The notes under the pieces: model-generated | Database searches by the model: none | What the model was told of the DNA's origin: nothing | Seen by the model: only the letters and a program-made list of their open reading frames with translations | Part shown: positions 36,310-57,991 of the stretch, piece after piece | Position numbering within the stretch: the first letter of the stretch is position 1 | How the letters are laid out: each line of letters starts with the position of its first letter | Program-made: the position numbers and the translations under genes | DNA from: a virus | DNA length: 64,000 bases | IMG/VR virus record: IMGVR_UViG_3300036985_002246 | Span: 64,001 to 128,000 of that record | Strand: one strand, 5' to 3'

Positions 36310-36351
36310 AAGACCTGCTCGGCTTCGAGGGGTAGGGCGTAAAGTCCAGCC

Positions 36352-37330: not shown

Positions 37331-38323
37331 ATGGCGCGTGACCCGTCCCTCTGGTGGTCAAATTTGGCGGACTACGAGGAGTGCCCTCAGAAGCTCCTGT
37401 GGAAGCGCGGCCACGGCACGATCGACCTTGGGCGAGGCCCTGGACGTGGGAAGCTCCTGCCTGACACGAAGAAGTCCGCCCACCACGCAGTCATGGGCAA
37501 CGTGCTCTCGGCGGCGATCGAGGCGCTCTACAACGAGGAGTTGTGGCGTGACCCGGCCAATCTCTCGGCTCGGCTGGAGGAACTCACCCGCAAGGAGTTC
37601 AACCTTCAGATCCTGAAGAACCATATCGTCTGGTCCGAGACTCCCGACAGGCCCAAGTGGGACGAGGCAGCCCCGCGTGAGGTGCTGCTCAAGACCTGCC
37701 TGGACGGGATCCTGAACTACCTCAAGACCATGAAGCGGAACCGGCTGCTCGGCCCCTACGCCAAGTCTGAGGTCAATATTTTCGCCCGCGTGGGGGACAC
37801 ACCGATTGCAGGGCGACCTGACCTGATCATTCGTCGAGAGTCACCCAAGCTCTCAATCCTCGACGGGAAGAACTCCTCGACGCCGGGCAAGTACACCAAC
37901 CCGGACCAGCTACGCTGGTACGCGCTCTGCTACTTCCTGGCGCACGGGGAAATGCCTGACCGGCTGGCGTTCGTGTACTTCCGGTTCCCTGAGGGCTGCC
38001 CGCCCAAGGACTACGACGGCGACCCGGAGACGTGGACCGGCCTCGTGGAGGTCTCCTGCACCAAGGGGGACCTCAAGGACCTCTCCCACCGGGCGGTCGA
38101 GACGCACCAGGCGATCACGAAGGAACTCTTCGACCCAACCCCGAGCACGAAGTCCTGCCAGTTCTGCGACTTCCAGGAGGTTTGCCCCGCTCGCATTGAG
38201 CAGAAGGCGGCGAACATTCGCAAGAAGCCGCCGAAGTCGGAGGCAGAGGTGGCGCTCGACTCCTCTACGGGGATCATGGATCTCGGGTTCTTTGGGGGTC
38301 CAGAAGTGGACTCCAAGCCGTAA
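37331..38323 (+). CDS. PD-(D/E)XK RecB/Cas4-like nuclease
   Basis: YEECP, GRPDLII..ILDGKNS, QLRWYA, C-terminal CQFCDFQEVC. Confidence 0.8.
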   Translation: MARDPSLWWSNLADYEECPQKLLWKRGHGTIDLGRGPGRGKLLPDTKKSAHHAVMGNVLSAAIEALYNEELWRDPANLSARLEELTRKEFNLQILKNHIVWSETPDRPKWDEAAPREVLLKTCLDGILNYLKTMKRNRLLGPYAKSEVNIFARVGDTPIAGRPDLIIRRESPKLSILDGKNSSTPGKYTNPDQLRWYALCYFLAHGEMPDRLAFVYFRFPEGCPPKDYDGDPETWTGLVEVSCTKGDLKDLSHRAVETHQAITKELFDPTPSTKSCQFCDFQEVCPARIEQKAANIRKKPPKSEAEVALDSSTGIMDLGFFGGPEVDSKP

Positions 38324-38336
38324 AGTGAGCCGAGTC

Positions 38337-41315
38337 ATGGCTGCCCCCTGGATTCTCCACCACGAAGACTGCCTCAAGACCATGGCTGCCATGGAGGCTG
38401 ACTCTGTGGATTCCGTCGTCTGTGACCCGCCCTACGGCCTGGAGTTCATGGGCAAGGATTGGGACCACGGTGTCCCCGGTGTCGAGTTCTGGATCGAGGC
38501 GCTGCGCGTCGCGAAGCCTGGGGCCTACCTACTCGCGTTCGGCGGGACACGAATGTACCACCGGCTCGCGGTCGCGATCGAAGATGCGGGGTGGGAGATC
38601 CGCGACGCAATCTCGTGGCTCTACGGCTGCTTGAGCGAGGACACAGAGGTCCTCATCAACGGGGCGTGGGTCCACTACCGTAGCGCCATTGAAGGAAGTC
38701 TCGCATTGTGCTACGACGCGGAGAATGACACGTTCTCGCAGCAGCCAGTCGAGCAGCTTTTCGTCTACGACTACGACGACACAGCCTACCGAATCGAGTC
38801 AGATCGCACCGATCAAGTCGTCAGCCGAAATCACCGCTGCATCGTCTGGCGTGACGGACGCTGGGGGTTCGTCCTCGCAGAAGAGGTGGCACGGGAACAG
38901 GAAGCGAGAGTACCCGTTCTCGAAGCCGTGTCAGACGTGCTCGACGCCCTTTCTCTGCTTCAACCGAACGCAGGCAGTTCGCAACCGGCTCTGCGCCGGG
39001 TGTCTGACGAAGGTTCACCGGGGTCCGCGCAAGAAGCCGGTGGCGCTTCGGGAGGGCATGACCGAGATCGCGTGCTCTGTCTGCGGCAAGAGGGTGTGGA
39101 AGCCGCGATCAGCCTTGAAGGTGGTGAAGCTGCCCTCGTGCTCCCGGCGGTGCAACGGGAAGCTGCGCGGGGCGGAGTGGGCGAAGCACGGGCACAAGGG
39201 CTCGGCAGCGGTGAGCCCGGAGGGCCGAGCGTCTGCTGTTGCAAAGATGACCGGCCCGCTCAATCCAGCGTGGAAGGGCGGGGTCACAATCTTCAGGAAG
39301 CACGGGAGCTACAAGGGGGTGCGATACGTTCGGTGCCCGCTGGATTTCCTTCCAATGGCGCGGAAGGACGGCTATGTGATGGAGCACCGTCTGATCGTGG
39401 CGAAGGTGCTGGGTCGCCGTCTCCTTCGGACGGAGACGGTGCATCACGAGGATCACGACCCGACGAACAATGCTCTGTGCAACCTGTCGCTGTTCAAGTC
39501 GAATCGGGACCACAAGTTGTACGAGCATCACGGTTCACCACTTCCGATCTGGCGAGGATCACCCCCCTCCACCTGACCGGGAAGGTGTGGTGCGTGAAGG
39601 TGCCGACCGGAGCTTTCGTCGCTCGTCGTAACGGCAAGGTGTTCGTCACAGGCAACTCAGGCTTCCCGAAGTCGCTCGACGTGAGCAAGGCAATCGACAA
39701 GGCGGCTGGTGCAGAGCGGGAAGTGGTAGGCCAATACAATTTGCCGTCCGATAGTACATCAGGGCATGCCGGAAAGCCTATCCATTCACATGTTGCGGGG
39801 TCTTTTCCACTTGCTCCTACTCCAAACGGAAGAGATATTACAGCCCCCGCCACCGACGCCGCTCGTCAGTGGTCCGGCTGGGGCACCGCGCTCAAGCCCG
39901 CGTGGGAGCCGATCATCGTCGCACGCAAGCCCCTGGGTACACCTGGAACAAACGTCGTGGCCGTGGTAGAATCTGCTCTGAGACGGCAGGGCGTCGTAGG
40001 GGAGATCCTGTGGAAGCCAGACGATGCAAAGGCTGCGGAGAAGTCAAGGAGCACAAGGACTTCGTACTCAACCGAACAGCAGAAAACGGCGGTAACATCT
40101 GCCGCAAATGCCGTCGAGAGAGGGACGCAAAGCACCGATCCGCTAACCGCGACCTCTACAGAGAACGGTGGAATCAGTGGTCCGCCGCGAACCCAGGCAG
40201 GTCCAGAGAACTCGCTCGCGCAAGCGAACGAAAACTACGCAACGAAGTGCTCGACGCCTACGGAGGCGCGTGTGCTTGCTGTGGGGAGCAAGAACGGGAC
40301 TTCCTCACCCTCGACCACATCAACGGCGGGGGTACAGCGCACCGGAGAGCTACACACGGAAAGGTCTACGGGGCCGTCCGAAGAGCAGGATTTCCTCCCG
40401 ACTATCGAATCCTTTGCTGGAATTGCAACTGGGCTTACCGGCTCTATGGCTCATGTCCACATCAAACGAGACAGTGATGGCTTCTTCGTATGGCCTGCGG
40501 GGCTACCCAGGAGCGCAGCAGGGGGCTCGCTAACCGTCGCGGCGAACGTCCTGAAGCATGGCACGGGTGGGATCAATATCGACGGGTGCCGGATCGAAAC
40601 AGCAGACAAACTTCTCATCCATACTCGGGGTGATTCTGGCAAGCGGGATACACGTCTGACCTACTCAGGAGGTGATTTCCCTCTTATTATGGAGCGCAAG
40701 GCCACTGCTGGTCAGGCTTTGGGACGCTGGCCCGCGAACGTGATCCTCGACGAAGAGGCCGCTGCGCTACTGGACGAGCAGACGGGCACGCTCGCGAGTG
40801 GGAAGGCGGCGCGGGGGGGACACCGACGCAAGGATTCGATGGGTGCGACCGGAGGGGCTGCTCTTGGCGGAAACGCCGATGGTTCCCTCCGAGCGGACGA
40901 GAACGCAGGCACGCTGTACGGGGACTCCGGCGGTGCTTCGAGGTTCTTCTACACCGCCAAAGCGAGCCGCTCCGAGCGCACGCACGGCGGGGAAGTGGTC
41001 AATCTGCACCCCACGGTCAAGCCAATCTCCCTCATGCGCTACCTCGTGAGGTTGGTGACGCCTCCCGGCGGCGTGGTGCTCGACCCGTTCTGCGGTTCTG
41101 GCTCAACGGGCGTTGGGGCAATCCTGGAGGGTTTCAACTTCGTGGGTTGTGAGAGGGAACTGGCGTCGGTCGAGACTTCCAGAGCCAGGTTTGAACTCGC
41201 AGTTCTCGTCTCTGTCGGTGGTGTGAAGAACCCCTGGGTGGACGACCTAGAGGTGCCCCCTGACGAGGTTGAGCCCCCGGCTGTCTCCTCAATCGAAGAC
41301 CTGTTCGGCTTTTGA
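38337..41315 (+). CDS. beta-class DNA methyltransferase with an intein and a second in-frame insertion
   Basis: VCDPPYG motif IV and LDPFCGSGSTG motif I; WLYG|SGFPKS split by the intein; ARKPL|TVAANVL split by ~197 codons. Confidence 0.9.
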   Translation: MAAPWILHHEDCLKTMAAMEADSVDSVVCDPPYGLEFMGKDWDHGVPGVEFWIEALRVAKPGAYLLAFGGTRMYHRLAVAIEDAGWEIRDAISWLYGCLSEDTEVLINGAWVHYRSAIEGSLALCYDAENDTFSQQPVEQLFVYDYDDTAYRIESDRTDQVVSRNHRCIVWRDGRWGFVLAEEVAREQEARVPVLEAVSDVLDALSLLQPNAGSSQPALRRVSDEGSPGSAQEAGGASGGHDRDRVLCLRQEGVEAAISLEGGEAALVLPAVQREAARGGVGEARAQGLGSGEPGGPSVCCCKDDRPAQSSVEGRGHNLQEARELQGGAIRSVPAGFPSNGAEGRLCDGAPSDRGEGAGSPSPSDGDGASRGSRPDEQCSVQPVAVQVESGPQVVRASRFTTSDLARITPLHLTGKVWCVKVPTGAFVARRNGKVFVTGNSGFPKSLDVSKAIDKAAGAEREVVGQYNLPSDSTSGHAGKPIHSHVAGSFPLAPTPNGRDITAPATDAARQWSGWGTALKPAWEPIIVARKPLGTPGTNVVAVVESALRRQGVVGEILWKPDDAKAAEKSRSTRTSYSTEQQKTAVTSAANAVERGTQSTDPLTATSTENGGISGPPRTQAGPENSLAQANENYATKCSTPTEARVLAVGSKNGTSSPSTTSTAGVQRTGELHTERSTGPSEEQDFLPTIESFAGIATGLTGSMAHVHIKRDSDGFFVWPAGLPRSAAGGSLTVAANVLKHGTGGINIDGCRIETADKLLIHTRGDSGKRDTRLTYSGGDFPLIMERKATAGQALGRWPANVILDEEAAALLDEQTGTLASGKAARGGHRRKDSMGATGGAALGGNADGSLRADENAGTLYGDSGGASRFFYTAKASRSERTHGGEVVNLHPTVKPISLMRYLVRLVTPPGGVVLDPFCGSGSTGVGAILEGFNFVGCERELASVETSRARFELAVLVSVGGVKNPWVDDLEVPPDEVEPPAVSSIEDLFGF
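38628..39656 (+). mobile_element. intein (343 aa) in the methyltransferase
   Basis: starts CLSEDTEVL, block B SRNHR, block F VWCVKVP, ends VTGN followed by Ser+1. Confidence 0.9.
38851..39576 (+). CDS. HNH endonuclease encoded out of frame inside the intein (start uncertain)
   Basis: CQTC, CSVCG, CSRRC, NPAWKGG, DGYVMEHRLIV..ETVHHEDHDPTNNALCNL in a different frame from the intein. Confidence 0.8.
   Translation: MTDAGGSSSQKRWHGNRKREYPFSKPCQTCSTPFLCFNRTQAVRNRLCAGCLTKVHRGPRKKPVALREGMTEIACSVCGKRVWKPRSALKVVKLPSCSRRCNGKLRGAEWAKHGHKGSAAVSPEGRASAVAKMTGPLNPAWKGGVTIFRKHGSYKGVRYVRCPLDFLPMARKDGYVMEHRLIVAKVLGRRLLRTETVHHEDHDPTNNALCNLSLFKSNRDHKLYEHHGSPLPIWRGSPPST
40010..40477 (+). CDS. HNH endonuclease encoded out of frame inside the methyltransferase insertion
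   Basis: GGGGAG SD plus GTG; CKGC/CRKC, YGGACACCGE..FLTLDHINGGG..ILCWNCN. Confidence 0.85.
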   Translation: MEARRCKGCGEVKEHKDFVLNRTAENGGNICRKCRRERDAKHRSANRDLYRERWNQWSAANPGRSRELARASERKLRNEVLDAYGGACACCGEQERDFLTLDHINGGGTAHRRATHGKVYGAVRRAGFPPDYRILCWNCNWAYRLYGSCPHQTRQ

Positions 41316-41329
41316 GCGTAAGGAGTACC

Positions 41330-41593
41330 GTGGACGTGAAAGCTCGGATCGAAGCTGCAATCAAGCGGCGGGACGACCTCCGCTCTCAGAAGGAGCGGAC
41401 ATTGGGCCGCCTCGAAGAGGCAGAGAAGAATCTCGAAGCTCTCCGCGCCGAGTGCCGGGCGAAGAACCTCGACCCGGACGGTTTGGCCGACACCGTGGCC
41501 AAGCTGGAAAAGGGGCTCCAGACCTCAATCTCGGACCTGGAGACGCAGATCTCCGAGGCCGAGAGTGCCCTCAAACCCTATCTGCAACCGTGA
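41330..41593 (+). CDS. small coiled-coil protein
   Basis: TAAGGAG SD plus GTG; heptad pattern throughout. Confidence 0.75.
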   Translation: MDVKARIEAAIKRRDDLRSQKERTLGRLEEAEKNLEALRAECRAKNLDPDGLADTVAKLEKGLQTSISDLETQISEAESALKPYLQP

Positions 41594-57674: not shown

Positions 57675-57980
57675 ATGAGCCGCCTACGCGCCCAGCTATC
57701 CAGGTCCGAGATCGATCGGAAGGTGGCCACCGCCCTGTCAGGGGTGGAGCGCACGGTTCTGTCAACGCTCCAGGAGTGCCACCAGTACGCACGTTCAGTG
57801 GGGAACCCGTTGGAGGCTGCTCGAACCAAGCGTGTGGTCCGTGACCTGGAGAAGGTGCTGGGGGCGCTTTCCGGAGTGCGTCGTGTCAGTCCTGTCTACG
57901 ACGCCGACGACAAGGACCTTCAGTCGTCCGAGCCCACTCCGAAGCCGAAGCGCCCGGCCCCTCCCCCTCCCACGGCATGA
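57675..57980 (+). CDS. hypothetical protein
   Basis: 101-aa ORF. Confidence 0.6.
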   Translation: MSRLRAQLSRSEIDRKVATALSGVERTVLSTLQECHQYARSVGNPLEAARTKRVVRDLEKVLGALSGVRRVSPVYDADDKDLQSSEPTPKPKRPAPPPPTA

Positions 57981-57991
57981 AGTGAGCTTCC

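Follow-up and report, generated by a model that had tools for sequence, protein, structure and literature searches.

The window analyzed here is a stretch of 64,000 nucleotides of viral DNA (positions 64,001 to 128,000 of IMG/VR record IMGVR_UViG_3300036985_002246), and our subject within it is a DNA methyltransferase gene that is interrupted by a putative intein, inside which a second gene, coding for a putative HNH homing endonuclease, is read in another frame. The source record comprises 199 kb and is estimated to be 45% complete, which corresponds to a phage of roughly 450 kb. The methylase open reading frame (ORF) spans positions 38196..41315 on the + strand and matches the N6_N4 DNA methylase family of Pfam; its start is probably ATG 38337, located right behind the stop of an upstream Cas4-like gene. 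Reading along the methylase frame, the motif WLYG is followed by an insert of 343 codons that begins with Cys and ends in VTGN (38628-39656), after which the interrupted motif resumes with SGFPKS. The +1 frame is open from 38635 to 39576, i.e., wholly within the intein, and closes with a TGA at 39574-39576, inside the C-terminal splicing lobe. These positions and motifs had been proposed from the letters alone in an earlier reading of this DNA (hereafter the original prediction), and were confirmed by our reading of the ORFs. The features of the locus are collected in Table 1. When the complete gene was compared with 50,697 phage records by megablast, no match was retrieved.

Table 1. Features of the methylase locus, with positions in the window, strand and the evidence for each assignment.
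N6/N4 DNA methyltransferase precursor gene (intein and second insert included)	38337..41315	+	Pfam PF01555, E 7.8e-24; ORF listing
Putative intein, 343 codons, methylase frame, Cys1...Thr-Gly-Asn followed by Ser+1	38628..39656	+	85/85 relatives; 6zgq profile match; Foldseek
Predicted N-terminal splicing lobe, residues 1-110, blocks A and B, Ser66-x-x-His69	38628..38957	+	pLDDT 85-97; conservation; substitutions
HNH homing-endonuclease ORF, +1 frame, 283 codons from candidate start ATG 38725	38725..39576	+	Pfam, PHROG, AF2
Intein-frame filler, ~residues 113-285	38964..39482	+	Unconserved, predicted disordered, stop-free
Predicted HNH catalytic core, +1 frame (VHHEDHDPTNN..CNL..SNRDH)	39442..39513	+	Invariant columns; HNH_3 match, residues 170-209
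Predicted C-terminal splicing lobe, residues 290-343, blocks F and G	39495..39656	+	pLDDT 72-95; invariant columns; substitutions
Second, intein-free insert with a hidden endonuclease VII/HNH-like ORF, +2 frame	39869..40477	+	phrog_2255, E 7e-18; phrog_1035, E 4e-12

Selection on two overlapping frames

The HNH product, the intein profile and the extein served as queries, and relatives of the element were thereby recovered from viral contigs and from contigs of metagenome-assembled genomes (MAGs). After the removal of duplicates, these amounted to 85 distinct intein DNAs whose G+C content ranged from 0.32 to 0.67. The HNH sequence was placed at +1 relative to both splicing lobes in all 85, which came from unrelated samples. 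Likewise, every one of them had both lobes in a single frame, an intein frame without stops, Cys1, TGN as the last residues and Ser at position +1, and no relative carried the HNH in frame with the intein. Degenerate copies were also observed, among them one with an extra frameshift (L086), one that lacked the C-lobe (L083) and one with a broken HNH (L025).

Within the window, a plot of G+C by codon position followed the methylase frame up to ~38870, the HNH frame from there to ~39550 and the methylase frame again beyond. A similar partition was found in the column conservation of the family, which was high in the methylase frame at 38613-38880 and again at 39543-39660, and high in the +1 frame at 38913-39540, while conservation of the intein frame was low across the filler. 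The HNH ORF was subjected to synonymous codon shuffling within each of 52 distinct members, and the stops arising in the other frames were compared with those present. A total of 482 stops was expected in the intein frame and none was observed. The third frame, used as a control in the same shuffles, held 604 stops against 567 expected. For the window alone, 5.8 stops were expected in the intein frame and 0 were observed, with a probability of finding no stop of ~0.001. The caution of the original prediction that this frame offset is often open by chance in GC-rich DNA therefore does not apply here, neither to the window nor to the family.

The original prediction had also suggested comparing substitutions frame by frame among homologues. 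For pairs of relatives whose nucleotide identity exceeded 70%, substitutions were counted and sorted by codon position 1/2/3 of the intein frame, which resulted in 96/72/178 for the N-lobe, 39/13/151 for the C-lobe and 609/271/209 for the centre. The wobble position of the centre is thus the third position of the HNH frame, so that the pattern of the intein frame is found at both ends and that of the HNH frame in the middle. Together with the deficit of stops, these counts indicate that both frames are under purifying selection. The shared layout of the 85 relatives, the deficit of stops and the per-frame substitutions together mean that neither chance nor sequencing error accounts for the arrangement, and compensating indels are ruled out on the same grounds.

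Predicted products and the start of the nuclease

Block B of the intein in the window reads Ser66-Arg-Asn-His69. In the family alignment His69 and Arg70 are invariant and Arg67 almost so, and the invariant residues further include Cys1, Cys322, Thr341, Gly342 and Asn343. A profile built from 46 intein-frame sequences matched the AceL NrdHF intein of solved structure 6zgq (hmmsearch against PDB sequences, E 3.7e-8). The AlphaFold2 (AF2) model obtained from the intein-frame alignment had a predicted local distance difference test score (pLDDT) of 85-97 over residues 1-110 and of 94-95 over residues 300-343, with almost all residues from 113 to 280 below 50. When this model was queried with Foldseek, the matches were exclusively Hint-fold proteins (hedgehog autoprocessing domains, a BIL domain and many inteins), with a probability of 1.0 and template modeling (TM) scores to the target of up to 0.59. 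Residues 1-110 and 290-343 are therefore modeled as a confident Hint fold with disorder between them.

As to the class of the intein, the invariant Cys322 (39591-39593, block F position 4) and Thr341 (39648-39650, block G position 5) resemble those of class 3 inteins, and 6zgq, the best match among solved sequences, is a class 3 intein. Contrary to the class 3 pattern, Cys1 is also invariant and position 12 of block B is mostly Cys rather than Trp. A self-splicing intron was considered as well and seems unlikely: an Rfam search of positions 38000-41500 with E values up to 1 retrieved no match, group I and group II introns included, and an intron is unnecessary since the host frame is open and the Hint lobes are present.

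The product of the +1 frame contains two Cys-x2-Cys zinc knuckles followed by the HNH core (VHHEDHDPTNN...NL...DH). Pfam family HNH_3 was matched by 45 of 48 family members (best E 1.7e-11), and HNH families of the PHROG database matched the product of the window itself (E 6e-15). With residues numbered on a query of 232 amino acids, His189, Asn202 and His212 were invariant in 48 sequences and His190 was nearly so. The AF2 model of this product reached a mean pLDDT of 88.8, and the product would have the beta-beta-alpha-metal fold of HNH nucleases. Foldseek retrieved no significant match to this model, and in structural alignments with VIA-align the top match, the HNH homing endonuclease I-HmuI, was weak (Z 5.0, rmsd (root-mean-square deviation) 4.3 over 79 residues), followed by I-PpoI (Z 3.7). 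No paralogue of the HNH was found in the same 199-kb record. The original prediction of an in-frame centre of low information on which a separate HNH gene is overprinted was thus borne out by the relatives, the substitutions, the stop test and the structure predictions. As for the profile searches that it proposed for both frames, HNH_3 and PHROG families were recovered in the +1 frame, the former below its cut-off for the sequence of the window, and the intein frame was recognized through the family profile against 6zgq, whereas the intein models of Pfam did not recognize it.

How the nuclease would be translated was approached through the distribution of stops and ATGs in the +1 frame. Stops were not depleted over nucleotides 1-136 of the intein (100 observed versus 78 expected), whereas none was present from nucleotide 137 to the first zinc knuckle (~+280), where 63.5 were expected. 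An ATG was present in the open +1 stretch in 40 of the 43 long-form loci, whereas synonymous shuffling of the intein frame predicts 14 such loci. The main hot spots for these ATGs were +139, with 23 loci, many of them with AGGAG or GAGGAG 8-10 nt upstream, and +97, with 14 loci including the window, and further ones were seen at +88, +85 and +148; no start codon universal across the family was found. In the window, the ATG at +97 is ATG 38725, common to 13 relatives; at this point the Asn codon of the intein frame is AAT, although the third-position G+C of the gene is ~0.8. This ATG had been offered as one of two candidate starts in the original prediction, and both its recurrence and the enrichment of ATGs agree with that proposal. 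In two relatives (L034 and L052) the +1 frame is interrupted by stops downstream of the N-lobe and upstream of the HNH, and an ATG follows these stops. The position of the +1 stop that ends the nuclease is not conserved among relatives, and in L026 it lies beyond the end of the intein.

The boundary in the distribution of stops, the enrichment of ATGs, the stops of L034 and L052 and the variable position of the +1 stop all favour internal initiation over frameshifting. Judging from these sequence features, translation of the HNH most probably begins at a separate start within the intein rather than through a frameshift from the intein frame, which also makes the frameshifting or translational coupling envisaged in the original prediction less likely. 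Internal initiation would entail true dual coding of 140-200 nt across block B of the intein.

A similar (T/G)AAAGT(G/C)... string, distinct from a classical Shine-Dalgarno sequence, precedes several gene starts of the window (38320-38336, 36335-36351 and 57975-57991). The phage may use unusual translation signals, in which case Shine-Dalgarno sequences would be of limited use for predicting its starts.

Mobility, proposed mechanism and alternatives

The distribution of the intein among methylases is patchy. We examined the 80 viral contigs with an N-extein closest to that of the window (72-85% identity), of which 3 were too short and 77 could be assessed. None of these 77 carried the intein, and 67 had a plain, uninterrupted WVYGSGFPKS site; the remaining loci differed downstream of the site. 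The site was also empty in the methylase gp64 of mycobacteriophage Mantra. On the other hand, methylases that do bear the intein were only 33-74% identical to the window over the same stretch, with C-lobes that were 53-85% identical. Since the closest methylases have empty sites, the element is mobile. In addition, two mini-inteins were found (L261, 1501-2034, 178 residues; L259, 1501-2097, 199 residues) in which most of the HNH is deleted while Cys1 and the TGN-Ser junction are kept. These derivatives show that the filler is dispensable. Such a sequence pattern is what would be expected of a homing element passing through invasion, decay and loss.

Taken together, we consider it very probable that this is a composite selfish element made up of two overlapping genes on the same strand, namely a spliced intein with a filler centre and an independently translated HNH homing endonuclease. 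In the mechanism that we propose, the methylase precursor would be read straight through in its own frame, and the two Hint lobes (residues 1-110 and 290-343) would pair across a disordered filler of ~180 residues, excise the intein and ligate WLYG to SGFPKS, which would restore the methylase. The same DNA, read one base later, would encode an endonuclease of the HNH_3 type as a free-standing protein with two zinc knuckles; its translation would be separate, beginning most likely at the internal ATG 38725 in the N-lobe and ending at its own stop in the C-lobe. This nuclease would cut or nick intein-less methylase alleles near the empty WVYG-SGFPKS site, and the repair of the break would copy intein and nuclease together (i.e., homing). 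As for its origin, we infer that an HNH gene was once captured by a mini-intein, which is consistent with the intein-free HNH homologues that lie ~20 codons downstream in related methylases.

Several results weigh against this interpretation. The Pfam scan of the intein frame of the window retrieved no match to an intein family, and HNH_3 matched the HNH of the window with 20.4 bits (E 3.9e-4), below the cut-off of 24.8. The penultimate residue of the intein is the invariant Gly342, so that the usual His is absent; active inteins without a penultimate His are known, however, and its absence is compatible with an intein. At +139, the commonest start position of the family, the window has ACG. 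All candidate starts of the window were weak in a search for Shine-Dalgarno sequences, in agreement with the original prediction that no good one is visible, and ATG 38725 is preceded by a GGAG at a distance of only 1 nt. Finally, a search for internal sigma-70-type promoters in the window found none. As neither a convincing Shine-Dalgarno sequence nor a promoter is seen in the window, the start in this phage is one that we infer.

A different route to the nuclease would be a programmed +1 ribosomal frameshift near the end of the N-lobe, perhaps with a shift back near the C-lobe, which would yield it as part of a fusion protein (a canonical intein-HNH or an N-extein/N-lobe/HNH product). Such a route would suit a window without a clear Shine-Dalgarno sequence and start, and also the overlap zones at both junctions, which are conserved in both frames. 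However, a double shift would render an open intein frame unnecessary, and yet this frame is free of stops in all 85 loci, with 482 expected in the 52 members. The +1 stops that follow the N-lobe and precede an ATG in L034 and L052, the variable end of the +1 frame (past the intein in L026) and the roughly 3-fold enrichment of ATGs in the open +1 stretch are equally difficult to reconcile with it, and neither a slippery motif nor a homopolymer was seen by eye at the N-junction of the window, where no dedicated motif test was run. We therefore regard frameshifting as unlikely. The layout might also be the product of artefact or decay, i.e., indel errors or recent frameshifts that displaced an HNH formerly in frame, in which case the element would be a pseudogene or result from faulty assembly. 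In a single sequence, such a layout could arise from two indels that compensate each other, and the degenerate copies L086, L083 and L025 do exist, but samples with no relation to each other yielded 85 distinct sequences with this same +1 offset, purifying selection acts on both frames and no relative has the HNH in frame, all of which renders this explanation hardly credible.

The other alternatives concern the intein frame itself. The intein may no longer splice, in which case the methylase would retain the insert of 343 residues as a loop that it tolerates, a fate already proposed for the ShiLan domain in mycobacteriophage methylases, and the conserved flanks of the insert would serve another function. 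The absence of the penultimate His is compatible with this, and members of the same methylase family tolerate unspliced, read-through inserts both ~20 codons downstream and at the ARKP site (PMC11855218). On the contrary, every member has Cys1, His69, Asn343 and Ser+1, and conservation is strong in both Hint lobes, which would be hard to explain in an insert that does not splice, and the motif that it interrupts is nearly invariant in the alleles with empty sites. We deem the loss of splicing distinctly unlikely. Alternatively, the central stretch of the intein frame could be a functional domain, so that both products of the overlap would be at work. The frame is indeed kept open, and some short motifs recur in it (e.g., ...LCDGA...), though these lie under the most conserved residues of the HNH. 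This central stretch, however, has a pLDDT below 50 and low column conservation, accepts substitutions freely at its first and second codon positions and is absent from the mini-intein derivatives; a functional centre is thus very unlikely.

Known systems, intein-free nucleases and the second insert

In contrast to what the original prediction had assumed, inteins of this kind have already been described. Gosselin, Arsenault and Gogarten (bioRxiv 10.1101/2025.01.02.630785) reported inteins of actinobacteriophages with an endonuclease VII-like gene in frame 3, hosted by the genes for DNA polymerase, minor capsid protein, terminase and thymidylate synthase. Like the element described here, these have the nuclease on the same strand, nested between the lobes in another frame, with an unstructured centre, and are mobile; those authors also propose the same origin, i.e., a free-standing nuclease gene invading an intein. 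Unlike the inteins of cultured actinophages, the methylase intein has a nuclease of the HNH_3 type with two zinc knuckles, in frame 2 (+1), and an N6/N4 methylase as host. According to that work, an intein with an HNH was reported in 1997 and likewise combines an intein with an HNH mobility module; in that case, as cited, the intein polypeptide itself includes the HNH as a domain, whereas the HNH of the window would be a separate, overlapping gene.

Among cellular genes, Phillips, DeSimone and Gogarten (bioRxiv 10.64898/2026.09.14.751524) documented an out-of-frame LAGLIDADG gene in the cyanobacterial dnaX intein and, in their account, Gorbalenya proposed nuclease homologues in alternative ORFs of a dnaX intein in 1998. 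The dnaX system shares with ours an overlapping nuclease ORF, purifying selection, a sporadic distribution and the hypothesis of secondary invasion, but its nuclease is of the LAGLIDADG type, in the +2 frame, and its host gene is cellular. Closer in terms of the host is the ShiLan domain of mycobacteriophage methylases (PMC9957025; PMC11855218), which occurs in the same methylase family. There, as described by Arsenault, Gosselin and Gogarten (PMC11855218), an HNH is hidden out of frame while the frame of the methylase is kept open. Splicing lobes are absent from the ShiLan insert, which presumably remains part of the methylase protein, whereas the HNH of the window lies inside a predicted Hint-fold intein at a different site; for the intein described in the ShiLan methylase family, the LAGLIDADG domain is in frame (PMC9957025).

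The methylase intein was found only in uncultured phages and MAG contigs, and the sole match to the family in the 50,697 phage records was the uncultured huge phage LR756508. Since the type of nuclease, the frame, the host gene and the distribution differ from those of the described systems, this is a new family, although not a new kind of element, as out-of-frame intein endonucleases are already in the literature. The family is of interest for the view of how inteins arose that is summed up as 'splicing first, nuclease later', in which free-standing homing-endonuclease genes invade mini-inteins. For that model it provides a large natural data set, comprising 85 variants with 32-67% G+C, mini-inteins, empty sites and intein-free nucleases at a neighbouring site. 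In addition, gene callers report one long methylase ORF at such loci and miss the nuclease, so that the number of such hidden genes in phage metagenomes is probably underestimated.

The intein-free nucleases were identified in ~20 of the fetched loci, in which a shorter homologue of the HNH (~150-170 aa, 45-58% identity to that of the intein) is present without an intein. In these loci the YG-SGFPKS motif is intact, and the nuclease lies ~10-25 codons downstream of it in the +1 frame (e.g., L064:2971-3438 and L046:2971-3492); in 20 of 21 cases the methylase frame runs across it without a stop. They are hidden HNHs of the ShiLan type (PMC11855218). Locus L063 differs in that its methylase frame is closed by a stop, with the HNH forming an in-frame ORF of its own. 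A tentative reading, to which we give somewhat less than an even chance, is that a single HNH lineage is tolerated in two ways within one methylase family, either in a splicing intein at YG-SGFPKS or in an unspliced, read-through insert ~20 codons downstream. The nuclease would always be at +1 and, in the intein form, its ORF would start well inside the N-lobe, with the 140-200 nt of dual coding across block B that this implies. If true, the family would preserve the transition in which a free-standing gene for a homing endonuclease moves into an intein or out of it.

The methylase of the window also carries a second insert, located in its C-extein between ARKPLGTPG and SLTVAANVLKHGTGG, throughout which the methylase frame is open. 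It has a hidden ORF in the +2 frame that matched phrog_1035, an endonuclease VII family. This insert is located where Mantra gp64 has its ShiLan domain (PMC11855218) and is ShiLan-like, but its nuclease family differs from that of the ShiLan/Mantra HNH. Mantra gp64 (L001:1431-3755) itself has an in-frame LAGLIDADG block near the N-terminus of the methylase, and its ShiLan insert is bordered by a duplicated EP(V/I)VVARKP peptide and contains a hidden HNH ~30% identical to the intein HNH of the window.

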